Positions 7,628 to 42,309 of a stretch of DNA of 64,000 nt are shown here, piece after piece. The translations under genes were made by a program, and so were the position numbers. Source of the stretch: Minisyncoccia bacterium (GTDB taxonomy: Bacteria; Patescibacteriota; Minisyncoccia; Phycocordibacterales; Phycocordibacteraceae); assembly GCA_041485695.1 (NCBI GenBank), contig JBGPJZ010000001.1:129316-193315 (forward strand). The letters are read 5' to 3'. The notes beneath the pieces were generated by a model, which saw only the letters and a list, made by a program, of their open reading frames with translations, made no database searches and was not told the origin of the DNA. Each line of letters opens with the position of its first letter. The first letter of the stretch is position 1.

Positions 7628-8164
7628 ATGTATCAGTTGCCTCTATCGGTCACCATCGCCATTGCGGTGCTTACCATTTTTCTATCTCTCACGGTAGGAC
7701 TCAAGTACGCGATTCATAGTAACTTTGTCCGAACACGTCTCACCATGACGCTTTTCTTCGTCTTCATCGTGTTTACCCTGACCATCTCGTTCTGGAATCA
7801 CGCGCTTGCGACGTTGCCCTATACGATTCCCTCGGGAGTCGTCGGCGTGGTCATAGGCTACGTGCTTGGCGTGCAGACTGAAAGGCGAAAGCTCTCGATG
7901 CAAGGCATGGCGCATTACATGGAACACTTCGCGCATATACATATTCATGACATTCGCTCCCTTACCTGGTGGAGTTTTATCAACTTCTACTCTGTAATGG
8001 GTGCGCTCTTGCTTATTAATCTCGTCGGCCTATCAAACGTCATCTTCGAGGGTACCGAGCTTTGGGCAGTCACAACGAGCGTCTTTGGAGCATTCCTCAT
8101 CGGCACCATCGTCCCGTACCTCTTCCACCTCTGGAGCATCCGCGCGACTTCCCAAGCGGCTTAG
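7628..8164 (+). CDS. hypothetical polytopic membrane protein
   Basis: 178 aa with 4-5 hydrophobic segments; convergent with cyoE. Confidence 0.4.
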   Translation: MYQLPLSVTIAIAVLTIFLSLTVGLKYAIHSNFVRTRLTMTLFFVFIVFTLTISFWNHALATLPYTIPSGVVGVVIGYVLGVQTERRKLSMQGMAHYMEHFAHIHIHDIRSLTWWSFINFYSVMGALLLINLVGLSNVIFEGTELWAVTTSVFGAFLIGTIVPYLFHLWSIRATSQAA

Positions 8165-9027
8165 GAGATAGAGAGTGCGATAGAAAGAGCGAGGATGACA
8201 AGGAGGGAGCAGAGAAAAGTCTGTCTGGCCCATTTTGCATCGTCGTGGGTCCAAAAGGCCGCGAGGGCGTAGCGAAGCCAAATAATCGAAAAAAGGCTCA
8301 CAATAAGTACGTACAGGTGATTTATGGTATGCACGACAGGGAGGGCGAGGCACGCGAGCGCGAAGACGACTATGTACGCGATAATCGCCAGCTTCGTCAC
8401 TCGAAGGCCTTTTACGAGCGGCATCACGGGGATGTGCGCGTTGGCGTATTCGTCTTTGCGGTAGATGGCGATAGAGAAGAAATGCGCCATCTGCCAGCAA
8501 CAGAGGATGAGAAAAAGTACGAGTGCCGTTGCATCAAGAGAATTGGTTACTGCGACGTAACCAACAACGGGCGGCACAGCTCCTGCAAGAGCGCCAAGAT
8601 GGCTCGCGTACATCGTCTTGCGCTTCAAGGGACTATAAACGAGCACGTATACAGCGAATCCAAAAAGTGCAACCTCGAGCGTTAAGAGACTGGTATACAG
8701 GAGAAGTATTTTAACGCCCACGATGCCAAGAAAGGTCCCAAAGATAAGGGCATTTCGCGGCGCTATCTGCCCGGTGGGGAGCGCTCGATTTTTTGTGCGC
8801 TCCATCAGAGCGTCAATGTCGCGGTCGATATAATTGTTAAACACTGCAGCGCTCCCGACGATAAAAGAGAGGCCGATGAGCATCGCTACGAAGATCCACC
8901 AGTTCACAGTGCCTTCGGAGGCAAGGAAGAAGCCCGCGGCAGCGGTGAGCGCGTTGCCGTAGATGATGCCCGGCTTCGTGAGCTGGTAGTAGAGCTTACT
9001 CAAGTTGGTTTTGCGGGGCAGGGACAT
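8161..9027 (-). CDS. cyoE: protoheme IX farnesyltransferase (heme O synthase)
   Basis: 288 aa; NNYIDRDIDALMERTKNRALP UbiA-family motif; last gene of the cyo operon. Confidence 0.9.
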   Translation of the reverse strand: MSLPRKTNLSKLYYQLTKPGIIYGNALTAAAGFFLASEGTVNWWIFVAMLIGLSFIVGSAAVFNNYIDRDIDALMERTKNRALPTGQIAPRNALIFGTFLGIVGVKILLLYTSLLTLEVALFGFAVYVLVYSPLKRKTMYASHLGALAGAVPPVVGYVAVTNSLDATALVLFLILCCWQMAHFFSIAIYRKDEYANAHIPVMPLVKGLRVTKLAIIAYIVVFALACLALPVVHTINHLYVLIVSLFSIIWLRYALAAFWTHDDAKWARQTFLCSLLVILALSIALSIS

Positions 9028-9331
9028 CGTTCAAGAATTCTTGCGGCATCGCGTGCTGCGATTGCAAATTGTTCATAATCCAGAGCGTACCGCCGACGAC
9101 GATACCCACGACGATGAGCGCGAATGCAAAGAGGGTGAGATTGCTACTAGGGCTCTTTCCTTGACCGAGGTGTAAGAAAAAGACCAATTGAACAATGAGT
9201 TGGCACAGCGCGAGCACCACAAACGCTACGGAGATAAGGGGATATGCGGGTATGACCCATAGAAGCCCGGCAGCTGCGAGCGTGAGCAGCGCCGAGAGCA
9301 CGTATCCGACGATGTAGTTCAGGGTGGTCAT
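8996..9331 (-). CDS. cyoD: cytochrome bo3 quinol oxidase subunit IV
   Basis: 111 aa, three TM helices, CyoD-like; sits between subunit III and cyoE. Confidence 0.75.
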   Translation of the reverse strand: MTTLNYIVGYVLSALLTLAAAGLLWVIPAYPLISVAFVVLALCQLIVQLVFFLHLGQGKSPSSNLTLFAFALIVVGIVVGGTLWIMNNLQSQHAMPQEFLNDVPAPQNQLE

Positions 9332-9900
9332 AGCGAGATGAAGCCGAAAAGGTAGACGAACGTGAAGATGAAGATCCAGATGATGTCAAGAAAGTGCCAG
9401 AAGAGAGCCAAGCACATAAGCTTTCGCGTGGTGCCCGGCGTGATGCCTTTGCGAGCGATGTGCGCCATGAGGACGAGCATCCAGAGCGCGCCAAGCGCGA
9501 TATGAGCTCCGTGCGTACCGACCAAGGTAAAGAAGGATGAGAGGAAGGCGCTCCCGCCGGGGCCATGACCCTCAAGAATGAGTTGCCGAAACTCGCTAAG
9601 TTCCATTATGAGGAAGGAGAGGCCTAAGAGGAGTGTGGCCACGAGTGCCGTAAGAGTAAGATTTTTCTTGTGATGACGCGCAGCGAGGAGAGCGAGCCCG
9701 CACGTAAAACTCGAGGTCAAAAGAAGGAGCGTTTCGGTAAGCACGAAGGGGAGAGAAAAAAGGTCTTCAGCCCTTGGCCCGTCAAAGGTCGCGATGTGCA
9801 AGACGGCATACGTAGCGAAGAGGCTGGCGAACAAGACGCAGTCGCTCATCAGGTAGACCCAGAAGCCAAACGTTACTTTTTCTTGAGTGTGTTCGGTCAT
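9328..9900 (-). CDS. cyoC: cytochrome bo3 quinol oxidase subunit III
   Basis: 190 aa; CyoC-like helices ([23 protein letters not shown]...). Confidence 0.85.
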
Positions 9901-11822
9901 GTTAGTTGTTCTTTCGGCACTACGTACTCGATATCGTCATCAAACGAACGAATGATGATGCCAAGAGCAACACCAATGAGCCCCACGATCGCGAGCCACC
10001 ACAGTTGCCAGATCATCCCGAAACCAAAGAGGAAGCTCGCGCCGGCTATGATAAGACCCATGGCGGTATTTTTCGGCATCACGATGTCTTCGACCTCATG
10101 CGCCGCTGTGTGGGGAGCCTGTTTTTGCATCCAAAAAGCGTCCCGCCCGTGTACCTGCGGTATAGTCCTGAAGTTGTAAAAAGGCACGGGGGTCGCGGTC
10201 GACCACTCAAGCGTGCGGCCGCCCCAGGGGTCGCCACCCGCAACGTGCTTTTTCCTCTGCCAGACGCTCACGATAATCTGTAGCGCTTGCAAGCATACGG
10301 CGAGCGCAATGATGCAGGCGCCAACTGCAGCGACGACCAAGAGAGAGTGCCACCCGCTCGCGATGTCGACATAGTCAAGACGCCTCGTCATGCCCATAAG
10401 GCCGAGCGCATAGAGCGGGATAAATGCCGTCACGAACCCGACGATCCAGCACCAAAACGCGTAGGCGCCGATTTTCTCGTTTAGCGTGAAGCCCATGAAC
10501 TTGGGGAACCAGTAGGTAAGCCCGGCAAAAAAGCCGAAGAGGACGCCGCCGATAATCATATTGTGAAAGTGTGCGACCAAAAACAGGCTGTTATGGAGCT
10601 GGAAGTCTACGCCAGGCACTGACATGAGGACTCCCGTCATGCCGCCGATGGTGAACGTGACTAAAAACCCCATGAACCACAGCATCGGGGTTGCAAAGAT
10701 GATGCGCCCGCGAAACATGGTGAAGAGCCAATTGAATATCTTGACGCCAGTGGGGATGGATATGAGCATCGTCATGATGCCGAAAAAGGCGTTGACGTCC
10801 GCCCCCGCGCCCATGGTAAAGAAGTGGTGCAGCCACACGACGAATGAAAGAAGGACGATGAGCATGGTCGCCACGACCATGGAGGTGTAGCCGAACAATC
10901 TCTTTTGCGCGAACACCGGTACGATTTCAGAAAAGACGCCGAACGCGGGCAAGATAAGGATGTACACCTCGGGGTGGCCCCATGCCCAGATAAGGTTGAC
11001 ATAAAGCATTGCGCTGCCGCCGAGGTCGGTAGTGAAAAAGTGCATGTCGAGGAGGCGGTCCAAGGAGAGCATTGCGAGGGTAGCCGTGAGGATGGGGAAG
11101 GCAAAGATAACGAGGAGCATAGAGCCGAGCGCGGTCCAGACGAAAATCGGCATGCGCATCAAGGTCATGCCGGGCGCCCGCATCTTGATGATTGTCGCAA
11201 TAAAATTAACGCCCGAGAGCAAGGTGCCGACCCCCGCTATTTGCAGCGCCCAGATGTAGTAATCGACTCCCACTCCGGGACTGTATGCGAGCTCGGAGAG
11301 GGGAGGGTAGGCGAGCCAGCCGGTCGCTGCGAATTCGCCGAGGACCAGCGAGAGGTTCACGAGAGTAGCCCCGGCAATCGTAAGCCAAAAACTTAGCGAG
11401 TTGAGAAAGGGGTAGGCCACATCCCTGGCTCCGATCTGGAGCGGGACGACGAGGTTCACGAGGCCGAACATAAAGGGCATCGCCACGAAAAAGATCATAA
11501 TCACACCATGGGCGCTAAAGATCTGCGCGAAATGGTCTGGCGTCAAGAAGCCGACCTGGTCTCCGACCGCAAGCGCTTGCTGGCCGCGCATCATCAAGGC
11601 GTCGATGCCTCCGCGCAGAAGCATGACAAACGAGAGGATGATGTACATCGCTCCGATCTTCTTGTGGTCTACCGAGGTAAGCCACTCGCTCCAAAGCCAC
11701 TTCCAGCGTTTAAAGTAAAAGAGCAAACCGACGGCGGCGAGGCCTCCCATGACGACGCTTAATTGACCGAAGGTTTCGATCGGCCCGTGTATAAGCGCGT
11801 CCAGTGTTAGTTTTCCAAACAT
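9897..11822 (-). CDS. cyoB: heme-copper oxidase subunit I (cytochrome bo3 quinol oxidase subunit I)
   Basis: 641 aa; [17 protein letters not shown] and HH..MIIGG ligand motifs of subunit I. Confidence 0.95.
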
Positions 11823-11824
11823 AG

Positions 11825-12766
11825 TTACATTCCGGGCATGCCCATAGAGGGCCCGCCCGAACGATCGCCCGCCTGAATGACAGAGTCGGGCAGGGAGTCG
11901 TCCGGTCGGGCGGGCGCCATGAATTTCATCAGAATTGTATCGTAGAGGGTATCTGCTACGTTCCCATAGTATGCCGGTGGGTTCGCCTGGCTCGGCTTTG
12001 CGAGTGCGTCATAGGCATGTAGAGTGAGCGATTCCGATGATTGCCGCACCGACTCGACCCAGGCATCAAAATCACTCCCTGAAACAGCTTCTGCAGTGAA
12101 GTTCATCTGCGCGAACCCGTCCCCGCTATAATTTGCCGATCGCCCAGCGAAGGTACCCGTATGGTCGGCGACGAGATTGAGTTCAGTCGACATGCCGGTC
12201 ATTGCGTAAATCTGGCCACCGAGTTCCGGGATCCAGAACGAGTTCATAGGGGCGTCAGCGGTGATAAGAAACTGTATGGGCCGGTTAACGGGGAAGCGCA
12301 CGCTCTGTACGGCGGCTATATGCTGCTCGGGGTAGATGAACAGCCACTTCCACGAGAGAGCCACCACCTCTATCGTAAGCGGCGGCGCCGCTATGGCAAG
12401 CGCTTTGTGCGGATCAAGGGCGTGGGTGCTGCTCCAGGTAATCGCGCTTAGCACGAGCACGATTTCAATCGGGATCGCCCACCACACGAGTTCGCTCATA
12501 GCACCATGCTCCCAGTTGGGGCTATAGACCGCGCGCGTATTGCTTCTCCGATACCACCACGCAAAGAAGAAGGCCAAGCCGAATACGGCGATGGCGACAA
12601 TTAGCATGAGGGAGACGACGTTTGTAATAAGCGTCAGCTCCTCCTTTGCCAGGAGCCCTTTCGGGGCAAGGATGGCAATAGTATGGCCCTGCATTAAAAA
12701 TACGATGAGGCCCAAAATACACGCGCACGCACTAAGGGAAATCGCTAAAACATGGACGGGCTTCAT
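11825..12766 (-). CDS. cyoA: quinol oxidase subunit II (no CuA site)
   Basis: 313 aa; [50 protein letters not shown] aligns with E. coli CyoA and lacks the CuA Cys/His ligands, so quinol oxidase rather than cytochrome c oxidase. Confidence 0.85.
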
Positions 12767-12813: not shown

Positions 12814-13287
12814 ATGGATCAACCGATGGGTGAGCAGATTAGGAGAGATGCGATTGCGTTTTTACAAAAGAATACCGCAGGAGCGCTCGCCACCGTCGGG
12901 AGCGACGGGAGCCCGCACGTACGGCTGGTGTATTACTCGTGCAATGACTCGTTCGAGATTTATTTCATGACCAAGCGGGATAGCCGCAAGGTCGAGGATA
13001 TCGCCGGTAACCCGCGGGCGGCCTTCACGATCTCTTCGCAAGAGGTGCCGCAGACGCTCCAGATAGAAGGCACGGCCTCTCTTGTAGACATACCTGCGGA
13101 GCCCGATGCCGTCTTAAACGCGCTCTTCGAACGCCTCGCTTCGAACAAGCACTTTACCGCGCCCATCACCAAGATGGGCGACAGCGAGCTTCTCCTGTAC
13201 AAGATAGCTCCCCTGTGGATACGCTGGGGCGACTTCGCCTTTGCGCAAAAAGGCCCGACCGGCATCTTTATCGAGATTGCCGGATAG
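12814..13287 (+). CDS. pyridoxamine 5'-phosphate oxidase-like FMN-binding protein (general stress protein 26 family)
   Basis: 157 aa; GALATVGSDGSPHVRLVYY split-barrel PNPOx signature; GGGAGG RBS. Confidence 0.7.
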   Translation: MDQPMGEQIRRDAIAFLQKNTAGALATVGSDGSPHVRLVYYSCNDSFEIYFMTKRDSRKVEDIAGNPRAAFTISSQEVPQTLQIEGTASLVDIPAEPDAVLNALFERLASNKHFTAPITKMGDSELLLYKIAPLWIRWGDFAFAQKGPTGIFIEIAG

Positions 13288-13300
13288 CCTGCGAAGAAGA

Positions 13301-15217
13301 ATGGAGCATCCTCCCACCGATAAGCCCCTCGAAAGTTCTCAGGACAGGCACGCGGGACACCATACGGAGGATTTTTTGAAGAAGTTCTGGGTGGTGTTTG
13401 TCCTCACCATCCCGATTGTCCTCTACTCCGATTTGCCGCAGGCGTTTTTCTCGTGGGTCGCGCCTGCATTCCCGGGGTCAGGGTACCTTGAGCTCGTACT
13501 AGGGAGCGTCGTCTTTTTCTATGGTGGATTAGTTTTCCTTACAGGCGCGGTGCGTGAGCTGCGGGCACGCCTGCCCGGCATGATGACCTTGATTGCGCTT
13601 GCGATTACTGTCGCATATCTCTACAGCGTCGGGTCACTCTTGTTTGGGAACGGGATGACGCTCTTTTGGGAGCTTTCGACCCTGATTGCAGTGATGCTTA
13701 TCGGCCACTGGGTTGAAATGCGGGCGGTTCAAAGTGCGAAGGGTGCTTTGCAAGAACTAGCAAAACTATTGCCAGACACAGCGGAAGTAATACGAGATGG
13801 AAAAATCATAGCCACGCCACTAAGCGGACTGCAAAACGGCGACATCGTTTTGGTACGTCCGGGCGGGAAGATCCCGGCTGACGGTACCGTGGTCGAAGGA
13901 GACTCCGAAGCAGATGAATCGCTTATTACGGGCGAATCTCGGCCTGTTGCTAAAGCCGTCGGCGCTCTCGTCATCGCAGGATCAATCGATGGCGATGGCA
14001 GCTTACAAATTAGAGTAGAAAAAATCGGCAAAGACACCTTTCTTGCGGGCGTCATGCGGCTCGTAGCTGAAGCTGAAGCCTCGAAGTCGCGCTTGCAGCT
14101 CCTCTCTGATCGCGCCGCATTCTATTTGACCATTCTTGCGGTGGGTGCGGGCGGCATCACCTTTATTGCGTGGCTCTTTGTCGGACAGAGTTTTGGTTTT
14201 GCCATCGAACGGCTTGTCGCAGTCCTCGTTATCGCATGCCCGCACGCGCTTGGGCTTGCGATACCGCTCGTTGCGTCTATTTCGACTACGATGGCAGCCA
14301 CAAACGGCTTCTTCGTGAAGCGCCGCCTCGCCCTCGAGGCGGCGCGCAGTATCAGCACCGTTTTGTTTGATAAAACAGGGACGCTTACGCAGGGCGCTTT
14401 TTCTGTAACGTCATTTACCTCGCCCGAAACTCTCGGATTTGCCGCTGCCGTCGAGCGTCATTCAGAGCACCCTATCGGTAAAGCGATCGTAGAAGAGGCA
14501 CATAAACGAGGTCTTGCGATACCCGAAGCGACACATTTCAAACGCCTCCCCGGGGTCGGCGCGGAGGCACTCGTGAATGGGAAAAAAGTATTCGTCGGGC
14601 ACCGCGGTGGGGTAGACACCCGCGTGGAGCTCGATGGTACTCTTGTGGGCCACGTCTCACTTGCTGACACTCCTCGACCGGAAGCAAAAGAGGCAGTCGA
14701 TATGCTCAAACGCATGGGACTCACCGTGGTCATGATTACGGGTGATTCCGACGAAGTAGCTTCGCAGGTAGCAAAAGAGCTGGGGATAGGGGAGTACTTT
14801 GCGCGCGTACGGCCAGAGGAGAAATCCCAAAAGGTGAAACTCCTCCAAAGCAAGGGAGAAAAGGTCGCAATGGTGGGGGACGGGGTTAATGACGCGCCCG
14901 CACTTAGCCAGGCCGACCTCGGTATCGCGATAGGGGCGGGTACGAATGTCGCCATCGAATCGGCGGGCATCATCCTTGTTAAAAATGACCCGCGCGACAT
15001 TCCAAAAATAATAAAGCTCTCGCGTTTGACGTATTCAAAAATGCTACAGAACCTTTTTTGGGCTACAGGGTACAACATTGTGGCGCTCCCGGTAGCCGCC
15101 GGCGCGCTTGCGGCCTACGGCATCGTGCTTCAACCGGCGTTTGCCGCGATCTTCATGTCGCTCTCAACCGTTATCGTCGCCGTGAACGCCTCCTTGTTGC
15201 GAGGCGCTAGGTTATAA
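13301..15217 (+). CDS. P1B-type heavy-metal (copper) transporting ATPase, CPH motif
   Basis: CPHALG, DKTGTLT, GDGVNDAP motifs; His-rich N-terminus (HAGHHTED). Start moved to ATG 13301 (the ORF from 13241 overlaps the upstream gene). Confidence 0.9.
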   Translation: MEHPPTDKPLESSQDRHAGHHTEDFLKKFWVVFVLTIPIVLYSDLPQAFFSWVAPAFPGSGYLELVLGSVVFFYGGLVFLTGAVRELRARLPGMMTLIALAITVAYLYSVGSLLFGNGMTLFWELSTLIAVMLIGHWVEMRAVQSAKGALQELAKLLPDTAEVIRDGKIIATPLSGLQNGDIVLVRPGGKIPADGTVVEGDSEADESLITGESRPVAKAVGALVIAGSIDGDGSLQIRVEKIGKDTFLAGVMRLVAEAEASKSRLQLLSDRAAFYLTILAVGAGGITFIAWLFVGQSFGFAIERLVAVLVIACPHALGLAIPLVASISTTMAATNGFFVKRRLALEAARSISTVLFDKTGTLTQGAFSVTSFTSPETLGFAAAVERHSEHPIGKAIVEEAHKRGLAIPEATHFKRLPGVGAEALVNGKKVFVGHRGGVDTRVELDGTLVGHVSLADTPRPEAKEAVDMLKRMGLTVVMITGDSDEVASQVAKELGIGEYFARVRPEEKSQKVKLLQSKGEKVAMVGDGVNDAPALSQADLGIAIGAGTNVAIESAGIILVKNDPRDIPKIIKLSRLTYSKMLQNLFWATGYNIVALPVAAGALAAYGIVLQPAFAAIFMSLSTVIVAVNASLLRGARL

Positions 15218-17055: not shown

Positions 17056-17100
17056 CCAAGCGTCCTTCGGCGCGATAGCGATAGATTGAAAGGGAACAAT

Positions 17101-17176
17101 TGAGCTTAATGACTCGGTACTGCTTTCTTATATATCACGATACAGTATAACTGTCAAATCTAGCTCCGCGGGTAAG
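17101..17176 (-). repeat. promoter/leader cassette copy B; begins with a 14-nt near-exact copy of the tRNA 3' end (gctccgcgggta[a/g]g)
   Basis: 17163..17176 gctccgcgggtaag versus tRNA 3' end 17246..17259 gctccgcgggtagg (13/14). Remainder ~75% identical to copy A. Confidence 0.55.
17129..17157 (-). promoter_or_regulatory. sigma70-like promoter TTGACA-17-TATATA (copy B)
   Basis: Minus strand: ttgacagttatactgtatcgtgatatata. Confidence 0.5.
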
Positions 17177-17202
17177 TAAGCTTGCCCGCGTTCTCCTCGT
17201 TC

Positions 17203-17236
17203 AAAAACAAAAAGCCCTTTCAAGGCTTTTTGTTTT
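17203..17236. terminator. bidirectional rho-independent terminator (downstream of the intron-containing tRNA)
   Basis: aaaaagcc-ctttcaa-ggcttttt flanked by A/T runs on both sides. Confidence 0.6.
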
Positions 17237-17244
17237 ACTCACTC

Positions 17245-17539
17245 GGCTCCGCGGGTAGGAGTCGAACCTACAACCAACTCCTTACATCGATCCTTACGTT
17301 TCCGAAAGGGATGGACTATATCATCACCGGATCTCGGTGCGAGGAGCTTCCAATCTCGACAGTACGTCGGAACTGTACTCCCGTTAGGGATAGTCTCTGA
17401 ACCTTTCCTGTTTTTACAGGACTTGGCTGCTGATTACCCGACAAGGGCTTCCAGCAATTCACCTCGTTATTCGACTCGGATTCCTCCGAGAAGCTGCGTT
17501 AAGCCACAGGGAGCTGCTCTACCATTGAGCTACCGCGGA
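17245..17539 (-). tRNA. tRNA gene interrupted by a group I intron; mature tRNA most parsimoniously tRNA-Asn(GUU)
   Basis: Hand-folded. 5' exon 17506..17539 gives acceptor stem, D-arm GCUC-AAUGGUA-GAGC, anticodon stem GCUCC and loop start CUGU. 3' exon 17245..17284 gives UAA, GGAGU, variable UGGUU, T-arm GUAGG-UUCGACU-CCUAC, acceptor CCGCGGA, discriminator G and CC. Joined anticodon loop is CU-GUU-AA. 5' exon ends in U that can pair with G of the intron GCAG (P1); intron ends in omega-G. Confidence 0.75.
17285..17505 (-). mobile_element. group I self-splicing intron (~221 nt, no internal ORF) in the tRNA anticodon loop
   Basis: Contains recognisable group I core elements: P (GAAUUGCUGGAAG), Q (AAUCAGCAGC), R (GGUUCAGAGACUA) and S (AUGAUAUAGUCC), with P7 GACUA/UAGUC pairing and terminal G. 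Confidence 0.75.
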
Positions 17540-17617
17540 ATGTCTCGAACGTATCGATTATACACATAGCTTTCTTATTGAAACAAGTGCATTAACACAC
17601 AGTGTTATGCTGTATGT

Positions 17618-17975: not shown

Positions 17976-18353
17976 ATGATTGAACACATCTCTGTGCCGG
18001 TGAAGAATGCGAAGAAGGCGAAGAAGTTCTACGCCGCGGCCCTGAAGCCGCTTGGCTACAAGCTCAAGTATGAGTGGGGTCCCTCCGCCGCGGGCTTCAT
18101 GGAGGGCGGGCATACGAGCTTCATCATCATGGGCAGGAAGCGCCCGCAAAAGACGCACGTCGCTTTCCACGCGAAAAGCAAGAAGGCCGTGCAGGGTTTT
18201 TACAAAGCGGCGATGAAGGCCGGTGCGAAGGACAACGGCGCGCCCGGTTTCCGCACGGACTACGGGCCGACCTACTACGCGGCCTTCGTCTATGACCCCG
18301 ACGGCCACAACGTCGAGGCGTGTTATTTCGGCGCTCGCGCTCCAGGGATGTAG
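17976..18353 (+). CDS. glyoxalase/bleomycin-resistance/VOC-family protein
   Basis: 125 aa; VOC fold motifs (HISVPVKN..., FVYDPDGHNVE). Confidence 0.7.
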   Translation: MIEHISVPVKNAKKAKKFYAAALKPLGYKLKYEWGPSAAGFMEGGHTSFIIMGRKRPQKTHVAFHAKSKKAVQGFYKAAMKAGAKDNGAPGFRTDYGPTYYAAFVYDPDGHNVEACYFGARAPGM

Positions 18354-19171
18354 TCAGTCTCGCTCTTGCCTTCAGGCACGACGCGTTCGATGACGAACAC
18401 GCCGTGCTCGTATCGCGCTTTCGTCACTTTGATGCGTCCGCCAGCTGGCGGAGCCGTAAAAAAATAGACACCAGGCCACTCGGCATACGCTCGATATTTA
18501 TTCCAATTCTCTCGCGCCGGGGCGCCAAGCTCGAGGAGGCCGTCTTCTTTTTTGATTTTGCCTGCTCGCGTGGCGGCCGTATGGTCTTGAGGTATTGGGG
18601 TAATTTCGCCTTGCTCAAAAGAATGGAGGAGATTCACGAGGAGAGACGCCCCAGTCGCGATAAGTCTGGGCTTTAACTCTTTAGAGGTTTCGTTACTGCC
18701 TATCGGTACCTCTTCTTGCGCAAGGATATCGCCGGCATCCATCTCAAATGCCATCTGCTGGATAGTGACACCGGTAACCTTCTCGCCCTTTAAGAGCGCG
18801 GTCTCGACAGGGGAGGCACCGCGATACTTCGGGAGGAGGGAATAGTGCACGTTCACCGCGCCCAGGGGGAAGGCGTCAATTAAGGCTTGGGGGAAGATTT
18901 TGCCGTAAGCGACCACGATTGCGTACGCGCATCCGTATTGTTGGATGCTCGCGATAGCGGCCGCATCGAGCTTCTCCGGCGTCAGCACCGGGATGCCTTT
19001 TTCAAGCGCGAGCGCCTTTGTCTCTGATGACGTCATGACGTGGCCGCGCCCGCGAGGTGCATCTGGGTTCGTGATGACAAGCGAGGGCACGAAGCCGTGC
19101 TCGATCAATTTCGCGAGCGTGTCGCGCGCGACGTACGGCGTGCCGAAAAAAGCGAACTTACGCGGGTTCAT
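18323..19171 (-). CDS. fmt: methionyl-tRNA formyltransferase
   Basis: 282 aa; formyltransferase N-domain (FFGTP...LVITNPDAPRGRG); downstream of def. Confidence 0.9.
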   Translation of the reverse strand: MNPRKFAFFGTPYVARDTLAKLIEHGFVPSLVITNPDAPRGRGHVMTSSETKALALEKGIPVLTPEKLDAAAIASIQQYGCAYAIVVAYGKIFPQALIDAFPLGAVNVHYSLLPKYRGASPVETALLKGEKVTGVTIQQMAFEMDAGDILAQEEVPIGSNETSKELKPRLIATGASLLVNLLHSFEQGEITPIPQDHTAATRAGKIKKEDGLLELGAPARENWNKYRAYAEWPGVYFFTAPPAGGRIKVTKARYEHGVFVIERVVPEGKSETDYIPGARAPK

Positions 19172-19694
19172 TTTTGTGCGAAAGTTCTAACAGGTTCGTC
19201 GCGTGGTCGGTAAACAAAATGCCGTTTAAGTGGTCGACTTCATGCTGGAAGATTTGCGCCAAGAGGCCGCTCGCGCCGCGCTCGAACTTTGAGCCGTCGG
19301 GGCGCCGAGCGCGCACGGTCGCGCGTTCTGCCCGCTTCGTAGTGCCGTACATCCCGCGCACCGAAAGGCACCCCTCATCTGATTCTTGCTTCTTGCGGGA
19401 GCGGCGGATGATTTCGGGATTAATATACACGTCAACCTGAGCCGGCCGCTCGGGCGGCTTCTCACCCTCTTTCACGTGCGGCGGCGGGAGGGTGCGGTCG
19501 ATACGCACGATGAAGAGGCGCCACGAGACGTCGACTTGGGGCGCAGCGAGCGCAACCCCGTCTGGCTCTGCATCCAGGGCTTCGGCCATATCGGCGACCA
19601 AACGAAAAAGCTCGGCAGAGCCGAAGAGCTTTTCAGGGACGGCCTTCGCCTCCTTGCGGAGTACGGGGTCGCCATCTTGGACGATTGTTTTCAT
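19158..19694 (-). CDS. def: peptide deformylase
   Basis: 178 aa; GCLS and QHEVDHLNG motifs. Confidence 0.9.
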   Translation of the reverse strand: MKTIVQDGDPVLRKEAKAVPEKLFGSAELFRLVADMAEALDAEPDGVALAAPQVDVSWRLFIVRIDRTLPPPHVKEGEKPPERPAQVDVYINPEIIRRSRKKQESDEGCLSVRGMYGTTKRAERATVRARRPDGSKFERGASGLLAQIFQHEVDHLNGILFTDHATNLLELSHKNEPA

Positions 19695-31411: not shown

Positions 31412-32977
31412 ATGTTTTGGGCAGATAGGATTGGAGAGGAGATACGCAGTACGAGGAAGCCGAAAGACGGCAAAGCGTTCGTCGTGCGCGATGAAAAGAC
31501 GATGTCTGGGCGCGTGCATATCGGCTCGATGCGCGGCGTTGCGATACACGGGCTCGTTTCAGAAGTGCTGAACGAATATGGATTGGCGAACGTTTACACA
31601 TATGAATTGAATGATTTCGACCCGTTCGACACGGTGCCGGCGTATCTCGACCAAGAAGAGTTCAAACCGCACCTGGGCAAGCCACTCTATCTCGTGCCGT
31701 CTCCCGAGCCCGGGTCGCACAACTATGCCGAATACTTCGGGGATGAGTTCAAACGAGTGCACCAGAAGGCAGGATTTACGCCCCAGTACTACCGCACCAC
31801 CGAGCTCTACAAGAGCGGCGCCATGGACCCGTTCATTAAGCTCGCGCTCGAGCGCGCTGCCGACATCCGGCGCATCTTGAAAGAGATTTCTGGCTCGGAA
31901 AAGGACGAATCGTGGCTCCCGGTTTCGGTTACCTGCGAGAATTGCGGCAGAATGATGACGACCCGTGCGCACGACTTTGACGGCAGTACCGTCGCTTATA
32001 CCTGCAACCACAGCCCCGACGGCATGCAGTCGTGCGGGCATCTCGGCCGCGTAAGCCCGTTTAAGGGCGGGAGTAAACTATTTTGGAAGGTGGATTGGGC
32101 GGCGAAGTGGGCTGCGGTGGGCGTCGACATCGAGGGCGGCGGCAAAGACCACTCGACCAAGGGCGGGGCGCGCGACGTGGCGAACCACATCGCGAAAGAG
32201 ATTTTTAATAGTACGCCACCCTACGATATCCCCTATGAATTCTTCTTGGTCGGCGGGGCGAAGATGTCTTCGTCGAAAGGGCGGGGGAGTAGCGCCAAAG
32301 AGATGGCAGAACTGTTTACACCGCAAGTACTGCGACTCATCTTGATAGGCAAAGATATCAAGGAGCAGATCAATGTCGACCCTGCGGGCGACTCGGTAGC
32401 GCGCACCTATGATTGGTATGACGACTTGGCCGATGGAGTCCGAGAGGGCAAGAGCGACGATTACGCACGGCTCTACGCGCTCTGCCAGTTGCCCGCGGAG
32501 CGGGCAGAGCTCGCCATACCCTGGCAGATGCGCTTTCGCGATGTCGCATTCATCGTGCAGATGCCGCACCTCGATTTGAAGACCGAGGCACAAAAAGCAA
32601 AGGGTGCCGATTTGACCGACGATGAAGCGGTCGCGCTCCTGGAGCGCGCGGGGTATGCCAAGTTTTGGCTCTCCACCTATGCTCCTGCAGATTTCCGCTA
32701 TGAACTCCAACAAACACTGCCAAGCAGCACTCTTTCAGACACGCAAAAGAAAGCGCTCGCTTCGCTCGCGCAGTATATGGAGCAAGAACGCACAGGCGAA
32801 GACATTCACGCGCGGCTCCACGAGCTCAAGAGCGAAGTTCCCATCGCTCCCGCAGAACTTTTCAAGGCAATCTACGGCATTTTCTTAAACCGCACCTCTG
32901 GCCCTAAAGCCGGCTGGTTCCTCCCCGTCCTCCCTCGCGACTTTGTCCTCCAGCGCCTCCGCGAAGCCTCACAATAA
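31412..32977 (+). CDS. lysK: class I lysyl-tRNA synthetase (archaeal/LysK type)
   Basis: 521 aa; HIGSMRG (HIGH-like) and KMSSSKG (KMSKS) motifs; no class II motifs. Confidence 0.85.
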   Translation: MFWADRIGEEIRSTRKPKDGKAFVVRDEKTMSGRVHIGSMRGVAIHGLVSEVLNEYGLANVYTYELNDFDPFDTVPAYLDQEEFKPHLGKPLYLVPSPEPGSHNYAEYFGDEFKRVHQKAGFTPQYYRTTELYKSGAMDPFIKLALERAADIRRILKEISGSEKDESWLPVSVTCENCGRMMTTRAHDFDGSTVAYTCNHSPDGMQSCGHLGRVSPFKGGSKLFWKVDWAAKWAAVGVDIEGGGKDHSTKGGARDVANHIAKEIFNSTPPYDIPYEFFLVGGAKMSSSKGRGSSAKEMAELFTPQVLRLILIGKDIKEQINVDPAGDSVARTYDWYDDLADGVREGKSDDYARLYALCQLPAERAELAIPWQMRFRDVAFIVQMPHLDLKTEAQKAKGADLTDDEAVALLERAGYAKFWLSTYAPADFRYELQQTLPSSTLSDTQKKALASLAQYMEQERTGEDIHARLHELKSEVPIAPAELFKAIYGIFLNRTSGPKAGWFLPVLPRDFVLQRLREASQ

Positions 32978-38209: not shown

Positions 38210-38262
38210 GTTGAGGGGGGCGGGCGCTTGCTTGGCAGGCGCGCCGCTTCTTTTTATTTATG

Positions 38263-38334
38263 TGACCCTACCGGGAATCGAACCCGGATTTAAGCCTTGA
38301 GAAGGCTCCGTCCTAACCGTTAGACGATAGGGCC
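38263..38334 (-). tRNA. tRNA-Glu (anticodon CUC)
   Basis: Hand-folded cloverleaf: acceptor GGCCCUA/UAGGGUC, D-arm GUCU-AACGGUUA-GGAC, anticodon arm GAGCC-UUCUCAA-GGCUU, T-arm CCGGG-UUCGAUU-CCCGG, discriminator A. CCA not encoded. Confidence 0.8.
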
Positions 38335-39873: not shown

Positions 39874-40329
39874 TTAGACAAGCAAGCTATCCACAACGGC
39901 CTTCACGTCGCCCCCGTCGGCCTTGCCCTTGAGCTCCTTCATTAGGGTGCCGGTAAACTTTCCCGCATCGGCTTTGCTTGAGACACCCATCTCGGCCATC
40001 TTGGCTTTCGCAATCGCCATAATCTCATCGCGGCTCATCATTGAGGGCATCAAGGCCTCGATAATCGCGAGCTCAAGCTTCTCGGGCTCTACCAAATCAT
40101 TCCTGCTCGCTTTCTCAAATTGCTCGATAGAATCCTTGCGCTGGTTCGCCGCACGCTTTAAAACCGCCCCCGCCTCTTCATCAGTCAAAAATTCATCCGG
40201 TTTGCGCTTCTTCGCCACCACTTCGTTCGTCATTGCGGTCACCAGTGAGCGTAGGGTGCGTAATTTCACCTCGTCATGCGCCCGGAGCGCGTCCGGTATC
40301 GCGGCTTTTAAAGATTCGTGTATAGACAT
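39874..40329 (-). CDS. yqeY: GatB/YqeY-domain protein
   Basis: 151 aa; helical YqeY pattern. Confidence 0.75.
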   Translation of the reverse strand: MSIHESLKAAIPDALRAHDEVKLRTLRSLVTAMTNEVVAKKRKPDEFLTDEEAGAVLKRAANQRKDSIEQFEKASRNDLVEPEKLELAIIEALMPSMMSRDEIMAIAKAKMAEMGVSSKADAGKFTGTLMKELKGKADGGDVKAVVDSLLV

Positions 40330-40573
40330 TTCTTGAGCTTACCATACCCCTTGCATATGGGACGGATGAGGAGTATATTTCCATCAGAACTTGCATCTCA
40401 GGTAGTCCCGGGATTTTTTACGAGACACTAGCTGTTAAAGTCCGCACCCCGTAAGAGGTGACAATGGACGACGACACGACCTCTGTGAAATACTCTCGGG
40501 CTAACTCTTCTCCACATCCCGATGTGAGGGTTTTTGAGTTACCGGAGACAAGTTCTAATAACTTTATACGGTT

Positions 40574-41638
40574 ATGACTATAACCATTTTGGGCGTGTCA
40601 ATAATAGTTCTTCTTATTCTTAATGGGATAGGACTATGGTTCCTTTTCGGCCGACAGAAGGAAGGGTCTGGTGGTGAGAATGGCCAGCTTCTTCTCTTGC
40701 AACAGCAGATGCAGGAGCTCACGCGTACCCTTGACGCACGCGTGTCTGAGTCGACGCGCACAATGCAGGAGAGTGCACATCGCCAAGCAGCTGAGTCTAA
40801 TCGGATCGTGAAAGATGTAACCGAACGTCTTACCAAGCTTGATGAAACCAATCGTCAGGTGGTCTCGTTCGCGGACCAATTGCAGCATCTTCAGGATGTT
40901 CTACAGAACCCTAAACAGCGCGGTATCTTGGGTGAGTATTTCCTCGAGACTGTGCTTCAGAACGTATTGCCGCCAGGTTCTTATCAAATGCAGTACCCGT
41001 TCAAGAATGGGGAAATCGTTGTAGATGCAGTCGTGTTTGTGAAAGATCGAGTCATCCCCATCGATTCGAAATTTTCTCTTGAAAACTATAATCGAGCTGT
41101 TGAAGCACGCGAGCCTGCCGAACGTGAACGATACGAAAAGGCGTTCAAACAAGACCTTAAGAATCGTATCGATGAAACGGCGAAATACGTCTTGCCGGAA
41201 GAAAACACAATGGAATTTGCATTCATGTTCATTCCGTCGGAAGGTATTTACTACGATCTCCTTATCAACCAGGTTGGCGCTATGAAAACCAACACTCGCG
41301 ACCTTATTGAGTATGCCTTCAGTAAGAAGGTGATTATCGTCTCGCCGACCTCATTTCTTGCTTACCTCCAAACGGTGATGCAGGGACTCAAAGCACTTCA
41401 GATAGAGGAGCAAGCACAAGAGATTAGAAAACAGGTTGGTGATTTGTCCCGCCATATAGCGAGCACCAACGAGTATTATCGAAAGATGGGAATAGCATTA
41501 GGTACCGTCACCTCTCACTACAATGCTGGCTATAAAGAGCTTGCCAAGATAGATAAGGACGTTTATCGCATTGCTGATGTTAAAGTCGGCGTTGAGCCAA
41601 ATCTTCTGGATAAGCCATCTGCAGGGGAGTTGGAATAA
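40574..41638 (+). CDS. rmuC: DNA recombination protein RmuC
   Basis: N-terminal TM helix, long coiled-coil and RmuC nuclease-like C-domain. GC ~47-48%, well below neighbouring genes. Confidence 0.85.
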   Translation: MTITILGVSIIVLLILNGIGLWFLFGRQKEGSGGENGQLLLLQQQMQELTRTLDARVSESTRTMQESAHRQAAESNRIVKDVTERLTKLDETNRQVVSFADQLQHLQDVLQNPKQRGILGEYFLETVLQNVLPPGSYQMQYPFKNGEIVVDAVVFVKDRVIPIDSKFSLENYNRAVEAREPAERERYEKAFKQDLKNRIDETAKYVLPEENTMEFAFMFIPSEGIYYDLLINQVGAMKTNTRDLIEYAFSKKVIIVSPTSFLAYLQTVMQGLKALQIEEQAQEIRKQVGDLSRHIASTNEYYRKMGIALGTVTSHYNAGYKELAKIDKDVYRIADVKVGVEPNLLDKPSAGELE

Positions 41639-41654
41639 TAGATTCCATAAAACC

Positions 41655-41691
41655 AAACAAGGCTGTGGAGAAACCCCGCGGCCTTGTTTTT
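41655..41691 (+). terminator. rho-independent terminator after rmuC
   Basis: aaacaaggc-(loop)-gccttgttt followed by tt. Confidence 0.55.
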
Positions 41692-41718
41692 GACCATTGA
41701 AAAATTTCTGGTAGAGTG
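41690..41718 (+). promoter_or_regulatory. sigma70-like promoter (TTGACC-16/17-TAGAGT)
   Basis: ttgaccattgaaaaatttctggtagagtg; GAGGT RBS before ATG 41746. Confidence 0.4.
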
Positions 41719-41745
41719 CAGGCAGAGATCTTGTGAGGTAAGCAG

Positions 41746-42309
41746 ATGGCAGAAGAAACACCGACTGAAGTCGAGCGCGAGGCGCTCGAGGCACTCTACG
41801 ATGCCGCCCGAAAGGAGCTCGCCCTTGGGCATAGCATCGACCCCTTAGACCCGCTTGATAAGCGCAAGACCCTCAATCACTTCTATCACCTCGTCTGCAA
41901 GAAGAAGCTCCCAGTAGACCGAGTGATTGCAGAGCTACAAAGGGTTCAGGCCGAACACAAGCACGAGGGCCACTATGTTATGACCTACAAGGTCGAGAAG
42001 GCCTCCGTGAATGTCTTCGTCGGCCTCGGTATTGTGGTGACGGTCTTCGTGCTCTATCTCGCCGTCGCAACCCACCACGTGAAGCCGCCCCTCGGCCCAC
42101 GTGACTGGTTGCCGGGCGAGCGCCAAGCGTGTATTCGTTATAGGGGCCAGGATGCCTATGCGTATCTCCCATCGAGCCCCCTGTCTCAAATACAAAACGA
42201 ACTTCGGGACAAATTCTTTCAACTTGATCGGGGGAACGAGGACCCCCAATTCACCCCCCTGATCATTAAGGACAGCGACCGAGAATGGTCGAAATGCCCG
42301 AAGGCCTAA
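41746..42309 (+). CDS. hypothetical membrane-anchored protein
   Basis: 187 aa with one central TM helix. Confidence 0.4.
   Translation: MAEETPTEVEREALEALYDAARKELALGHSIDPLDPLDKRKTLNHFYHLVCKKKLPVDRVIAELQRVQAEHKHEGHYVMTYKVEKASVNVFVGLGIVVTVFVLYLAVATHHVKPPLGPRDWLPGERQACIRYRGQDAYAYLPSSPLSQIQNELRDKFFQLDRGNEDPQFTPLIIKDSDREWSKCPKA

Follow-up and report, generated by a model that had tools for sequence, protein, structure and literature searches.

Within the window (the whole 64,000-nt stretch of DNA analysed here), positions 17245-17539 hold a minus-strand tRNA gene split by a group I intron, with every element lying where the initial annotation, which left the strand unnamed, had placed it. The gene and its immediate flanks are arranged as follows.

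17557..17586, minus strand: possible promoter, TTGTTT and TATAAT separated by 18 nt, read from the sequence, with 17 nt between it and the tRNA 5' end
17539..17506, minus strand: tRNA-Asn 5' exon, UCCGCGGUAGCUCAAUGGUAGAGCAGCUCCCUGU (from the sequence, and from ARAGORN on the spliced gene and in intron mode); 17506..17539 comprises the acceptor strand, the D arm, the 5' strand of the anticodon stem and C32 U33 G34 U35
17505..17285, minus strand: group I intron of 221 nt, with G1 at 17505 and omega-G at 17285, starting GGCUUAACGCAG and ending AUCGAUG
17284..17247, minus strand: tRNA-Asn 3' exon, UAAGGAGUUGGUUGUAGGUUCGACUCCUACCCGCGGAG (from the sequence and ARAGORN); 17247..17284 comprises U36 A37 A38, the 3' strand of the anticodon stem, the variable loop, the T arm, the acceptor strand and the discriminator G73 (17247)
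17196..17236, minus strand: hairpin resembling an intrinsic terminator, 10 nt after the tRNA and followed by a T-rich tail

The discriminator is followed by CC (17246-17245) and then by G, so that the terminal A of the CCA end is not encoded. The downstream hairpin has perfect 13-nt inverted-repeat arms and folds as a 15-bp stem with a 3-nt loop (-19.9 kcal/mol); a consensus terminator scanner did not call a terminator at 17196..17236. Upstream, a promoter for the tRNA-Asn gene is possible, its TTGTTT-18-TATAAT letters being a weak consensus match that fell below the threshold of a promoter scanner. A 12-nt exact direct repeat (plus strand GCTCCGCGGGTA) lies at window 17163-17174 and 17246-17257. 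Read on the minus strand (UACCCGCGGAGC) it runs from the final base of the T stem through the 3' acceptor strand and the discriminator of the tRNA to one C, and its second copy lies 83 nt downstream, so that the terminator hairpin lies between the two copies; to judge by its letters, the pair looks like a partial duplication or a small scar of att type. Three short direct repeats had also suggested a degenerate second tRNA-Asn at 17096-17174, which we rejected (local alignment score 26, against 23.4 ± 4.5 for shuffles), and neither ARAGORN nor Rfam found a tRNA in that interval.

The window belongs to a Patescibacteria genome of Paceibacteria type, because homologues of its QoxB (oxidase subunit I; 70-83% identity) come from Paceibacterota, Parcubacteria and Adlerbacteria, and those of its CysRS (63-75% identity) from Patescibacteria, Paceibacterota, Minisyncoccia and Kaiserbacteria; all of the named homologues of both proteins are Patescibacteria groups, bar a few labelled only 'bacterium'. 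The G+C content of the window is 56%, and the nearest identified genes are the following.

8161-12766, minus strand: complete quinol oxidase operon of cytochrome bo3 type, with subunits II, I, III and IV and a UbiA-family haem O synthase
13241-15217: P-type ATPase
18323-19694: def and fmt

Aminoacyl-tRNA synthetases, DnaB and AtpD lie further along the window, the tRNA-Asn gene being set among housekeeping genes. To our knowledge, Patescibacteria are usually described as a phylum without respiratory chains; the quinol oxidase is nevertheless established in this lineage, with 70-83% identical homologues in many Paceibacterota and Parcubacteria MAGs. No tRNA or intron was found within 10 kb of the QoxB relatives L122-L127. 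The lysyl-tRNA synthetase of the window (31412-32977) is of class I ('archaeal-type'; TIGR00467 331.8 bits, cut-off 147.55). The only other tRNA found in the window is a tRNA-Glu(CUC) at 38262-38334, and just beyond it, around an ORF at 40574-41638, a second local drop in G+C occurs (48.5% over window 40001-42000 versus about 56%).

In its default mode ARAGORN detected no tRNA at 17245-17539, and the Rfam tRNA model found no match there. Run in intron mode on the genomic sequence, or on the sequence minus 221 nt, ARAGORN returned tRNA-Asn(gtt), in intron mode together with a 221-nt intron, and the exons left after intron removal formed a canonical cloverleaf with the anticodon GUU; this bears out the initial proposals of a tRNA-Asn GUU and of a cloverleaf that appears only when 17285..17505 is removed. 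Since ARAGORN, when run on 13 x 14 alternative junctions, accepted nearly any of them and was uninformative on this point, the junction was set by group I rules. CUGU/...G/UAA (slashes mark the splice sites) is the sole junction at which the 5' splice site follows a U, the 3' splice site follows a G and the anticodon loop has 7 nt. The spliced loop reads CUGUUAA, and the intron separates U35 from U36, in agreement with the 35/36 site read in the initial annotation.

An alternative 3' splice site, G/UAAGGAUC at 17297, 12 nt upstream of the real one, was rejected, its use giving four of five stem pairs and leaving 12 extra bases. The heptamer GUAAGGA occurs twice on the minus strand, 12 nt apart (window 17291-17297 and 17279-17285), one copy making up the 3' side of the P9 stem and the other spanning the real 3' splice site (G/UAAGGA); the upstream copy mimics a 3' splice site, and its use does not restore a proper anticodon stem.

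The spliced exons were compared with 72 uninterrupted tRNAs in the retrieved loci, a set enriched in Asn by the search pattern, in which other isotypes were present and scored lower. The 15 nearest tRNAs were all Asn (76-83% identity), versus 72% identity to the best Asp and 69% to the best Thr in the same comparison, and the discriminator G73 matches that of the nearest uninterrupted tRNA-Asn genes. No other tRNA-Asn was found by ARAGORN or Rfam within the 64-kb window.

The intervening sequence, which had been proposed as a group I intron of about 221 nt, was recognised by the covariance model for group I introns (Rfam RF00028) with 77.7 bits (gathering score 50; E 4.9e-18, whole window), and the P, Q, R and S elements named in the initial annotation are all present exactly. 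A pattern scan of GTDB representative genomes yielded at least 15 true homologues, its other matches being mostly due to chance; the window's own species was not among the matches listed. The homologues come from Paceibacterota or Parcubacteria (L037, L103, L019), Saccharibacteria (L027, L021, L081, L071, L114), other Patescibacteria (L108, L085), an unclassified bacterium (L023), MAGs labelled Gammaproteobacteria (L022, L052, L059) and a cyanobacterium (Cyanobacteriota; L089). All 15 have CUGU in the exon and the G/UAA 3' junction, and their GCAG guide lies 5-35 nt inside the intron. A tighter pattern scan of metagenomes and viral contigs listed at least 126 loci, six of them on viral contigs, and the complete architecture was present in 102 of the 126 listed, with introns of 199-349 nt; the CUGU/...GCAG......G/UAA layout is therefore carried by at least 15 genome loci and at least 102 further viral or metagenome loci. 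The five closest metagenomic relatives among the matches listed are 76-81% identical to the window intron. The tRNA-Asn 35/36 intron family is abundant.

Unguided RNAalifold on a 16-sequence alignment found the anticodon stem, P1, P2, P3, P4, P5, P6/P6a, P8 and P9, with compensatory changes in 33 of 44 pairs. We then scored on the 16-gene alignment a full structure written by hand, which added the P7 pseudoknot and P7.1. In this structure 91.8% of the base-pair cells were paired, versus 34-44% when the 3' partners were slid by 1-3 columns, both sides had changed in 37 of 58 pairs, and none of 500 column shuffles reached the observed values on any measure. The anticodon stem covaries among the homologues. 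The elements of the intron, in transcript order and with their values in this alignment, are as follows.

17494..17497, minus strand: internal guide GCAG, pairing with exon CUGU (17509-17506) to form P1, with the U35-G wobble at the 5' splice site
17475..17490, minus strand: P2 hairpin, 6 bp with a GGAA (GNRA-type) loop; both-side changes in 6/6 pairs, 94.8% of cells paired
17462..17466, minus strand: P3 5' strand CGAGG, pairing with CCUCG at 17344-17340; 3/5 pairs compensatory, 98.6% paired, found also by RNAalifold
17460-17448, minus strand: element P, GAAUUGCUGGAAG, exact
17428..17456, minus strand: P4 (UGCUGG with UCAGCA) around the short P5 hairpin (17448-17436), corresponding to the P and Q elements
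17435-17426, minus strand: element Q, AAUCAGCAGC, exact
17401..17427, minus strand: P6 and P6a hairpin; P6a compensatory in 5/5 pairs
17403-17391, minus strand: element R, GGUUCAGAGACUA, exact
17391..17395, minus strand: P7 5' strand GACUA (the end of R), pairing with UAGUC at 17318-17314 (in S)
17379..17390, minus strand: P7.1 hairpin UCCC-UAAC-GGGA, between P7 and the P3 3' strand; 3/4 pairs compensatory in those homologues where it is present, and it folds alone
17351..17375, minus strand: P7.2 hairpin, from single-sequence folds
17325..17339, minus strand: P8 hairpin; 4/5 pairs compensatory, 97.1% paired
17324-17313, minus strand: element S, AUGAUAUAGUCC, exact
17292..17309, minus strand: P9 hairpin capped by a GAAA loop, with a 6-nt tail and omega-G after it; 6/7 pairs compensatory, 80.2% paired

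Since P1 and P7 vary hardly or not at all, their support comes from conservation. The four P1 pairs, U-G included, do not vary in any of the homologues represented at the columns concerned (13-16 of 16), the U partner of the wobble being the 3'-terminal base of the 5' exon, U35. P7 is almost unchanged across the 16 homologues (97.5% paired), and by comparison with the Tetrahymena R/S core we take its G-C pair to lie at the guanosine-binding site. The terminal omega-G at 17285 precedes UAA in all 16 homologues; it and the P1 pairing of CUGU with GCAG through a U-G wobble are as first described. P5, with 4 bp, is very short, shorter than in most relatives. A P10 pairing of 4 bp can be drawn in the window between intron CUUA and 3' exon UAAG; as a family feature we rejected it (mean 2.5 bp versus 2.2 bp with shuffled loops). 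The 221-nt intron has no room for a homing endonuclease ORF, its longest stop-free stretch being 73 codons. These results demonstrate the sequence, the fold and how it is conserved, the junction and the identity of the tRNA.

Between the P7 strand GACUA (17395-17391) and the P3 3' strand lies a 46-nt segment, 42 nt of which were scored as an insertion by Rfam; P7.1 and P7.2 fall in it. A hairpin at the place of P7.2 appears in single-sequence folds of the window intron and of the homologues L037, L108, L114, L103 and L021, and P7.2 was left out of the covariation scoring because the alignment is out of register there. Hairpins P7.1 and P7.2 between P7 and the P3 3' strand are a hallmark of subgroup IA, not of IC3. 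Together with the published classification of its relatives (25 of 28 introns at 35/36 were assigned to subgroup IA; PMC13011429), they point to a subgroup IA intron in the window.

The initial annotation regarded Asn at 35/36 as an unusual host and position, a view that is out of date, and its list of bacterial hosts, Leu(UAA), fMet, Ile(CAU) and Arg(CCU), holds for the picture before 2020; 21 types have been recognised since. The computational catalogue of Williams (2020; bioRxiv 10.1101/2020.01.27.920355), made with the tFind tool, brought the 4 types of bacterial tRNA intron known until then to 21, and Nakagawa et al. (2026, mSystems; PMC13011429) credit it with the type 'Asn.4Ug'. In 95 complete Patescibacteria genomes, the latter authors reported 35/36 introns in 15 tRNA-Asn and 3 tRNA-Asp genes; among 4,934 complete bacterial genomes 28 introns occupied this position, 19 of them in Patescibacteria, and most 35/36 introns were without a homing endonuclease (PMC13011429). 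The interrupted genes that they assayed were sole genomic copies, and in vitro with GTP the tRNA-Asn intron of GCA_016700035.1 and a tRNA-Asp intron spliced precisely at 35/36, whereas an omega G-to-C mutant was blocked and stalled at the intron-3' exon intermediate (PMC13011429).

The window intron shares with this class the host tRNA, the site CUGU/...G/UAA, the GCAG guide, the IA-type P7.1/P7.2 feature and the host phylum, in which such interrupted genes are common, and its 221 nt compare with 222-259 nt for published endonuclease-free 35/36 examples. Its identity to the six published 35/36 introns compared is 50-60%, with 58% to the validated tRNA-Asn intron of GCA_016700035.1 and 60% to a published Paceibacteria intron (GCA_016699245.1), in which the P7-P7.1 segment AGACUAUCCCUAACGGGAGUA is identical. 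It differs from the published members in coming from another genome and, unlike some of them, it has no homing endonuclease in the P1 loop. Its sequence had no match in the part of the supplementary tables of Nakagawa et al. that was accessible. Every defining feature of the Patescibacteria 35/36 class that could be tested is present at the window locus.

The resemblance to other group I introns is looser. With the classical tRNA introns, namely Leu(UAA) of cyanobacteria and plastids, fMet, Ile(CAU) of Azoarcus and Arg(CCU) of Agrobacterium, the window intron has in common a group I ribozyme of 200-250 nt in the anticodon loop, a P1 formed from loop bases, the U-G wobble and omega-G; the classical introns, however, lie at 33/34, 34/35 or 36/37 and belong to subgroup IC3, whereas the window intron lies at 35/36 and has P7.1/P7.2. 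The IC3 classical and the 35/36 introns form separate lineages in the published intron tree (PMC13011429). The best blastn matches within the phage collection (70-77% over the P3-P8 core) were to phage subgroup IA introns, such as the psbA intron of Synechococcus phage S-PM2; these interrupt protein-coding genes, and the likeness is limited to the catalytic core, with a different exon context and guide. The arrangement was catalogued in 2020 and its self-splicing was shown in 2026, and the window locus is one more example.

Taken together, the locus is very probably a minus-strand tRNA-Asn(GUU) gene from a Patescibacteria genome, split at U35/U36 by a 221-nt group I ribozyme of subgroup IA type. 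The gene would be transcribed as a single precursor ending at the hairpin terminator just downstream, in which the intron would fold into the P1-P9 core with the extra P7.1 and P7.2 hairpins. The guide GCAG would pair with exon CUGU, placing the U35-G wobble at the 5' splice site, and a free (exogenous) guanosine held in P7 would attack after U35. The terminal G (17285) would then occupy the guanosine site and the 3'-OH of U35 would attack after G17285, ligating U35 to U36 and restoring the loop CUGUUAA; end processing and completion of CCA would yield a functional tRNA-Asn. That the window intron is catalytic we infer from its homology to introns that self-splice in vitro, an argument that is strong because precise splicing at 35/36 has been shown for two members of this class; as identity to the validated intron is only 58%, activity would rest on the conserved structure.

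Many subgroup IA introns are assisted by proteins in vivo, as with phage and organellar group I introns, and the very short P5 of the window intron, together with the absence of peripheral stabilisers of the P5abc type, would fit a real intron that needs a host protein or chaperone for efficient splicing in vivo. We consider such a need unlikely, given that two relatives built on this compact plan needed only GTP to splice in vitro (PMC13011429) and that the GNRA loops of L2 and L9 can provide the customary tertiary contacts. A requirement of this kind would in any case overlap with the self-splicing tRNA-Asn gene proposed above and not exclude it.

A decaying pseudogene, in which a non-splicing intron sits in one copy of tRNA-Asn while a functional uninterrupted tRNA-Asn is encoded elsewhere in the genome, has a very small chance of being the correct explanation. 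The genome was inspected over 64 kb, which leaves space for a further copy, and the minimal P5 and weak P10 might be taken as signs of decay. Against this, every core element is intact, fits the family consensus and shows compensatory changes; the cloverleaf built from the exons is perfect and bears Asn identity features; the gene lies between a plausible promoter and a terminator; the window holds no second tRNA-Asn; and in the published Patescibacteria cases assayed the interrupted gene was the only copy (PMC13011429).

A tRNA-Thr(UGU) host, with the intron at 33/34 and its boundaries shifted by two bases, is a known miscall of such tRNA-Asn genes (7 of 15 by ARAGORN and 9 of 15 by tFind; PMC13011429 Table 1) and also has a U before its alternative 5' site, but we ruled it out as having practically no chance of being right, since the shifted intron ends in A (17287) and not in G, the P1 pairing of CUGU with GCAG is lost, the exons are 76-83% identical to tRNA-Asn versus at most 69% to any tRNA-Thr, and ARAGORN itself calls Asn here.

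For a self-splicing tRNA-Asn gene of this kind, the practical consequence is one of annotation: because default tRNA finders miss the gene, an annotation pipeline would report a genome without tRNA-Asn and its estimated completeness would be lowered, a problem with interrupted tRNA genes that Nakagawa et al. (2026) have documented (PMC13011429). The locus adds to an abundant family a Paceibacteria-type example with a minimal P5, and opens no new biological question. A wider significance seems improbable to us, be it splicing as an RNA-only gate on translation that ties the supply of tRNA-Asn to the guanine-nucleotide pool, an idea raised as speculation by Nakagawa et al. (PMC13011429), or exchange of the family between phages and Patescibacteria. 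If the former were true, and this were the sole tRNA-Asn in a reduced genome, the intron would be more than a tolerated passenger. The latter, if true, would proceed through exchange of tRNA genes with no homing endonuclease, contigs of large phages carrying the 35/36 type.

As the intron is without a homing endonuclease, vertical inheritance, or at most rare mobility, is probable. The same class of tRNA-Asn 35/36 intron occurs in contigs that are not labelled Patescibacteria (L022, L052, L059, L089); the introns of L022 and L052 (199 and 205 nt) are without P7.1/P7.2 and close in length to the phage-borne ones. These phage-borne copies may bear on the spread of this intron class. They lie in tRNA-Asn genes on IMG/VR contigs of 25-103 kb (L129:11300-11358, L130:9894-9952, L131:6944-7002 and L133:3186-3244), with introns of 206-207 nt and scattered tRNA genes on all four contigs. 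Comparison of L129 and L131 with PHROGs showed genes of large-phage type, with an amidoligase in both and, additionally in L129, GroEL, a PurZ-like enzyme and a tRNA nucleotidyltransferase.
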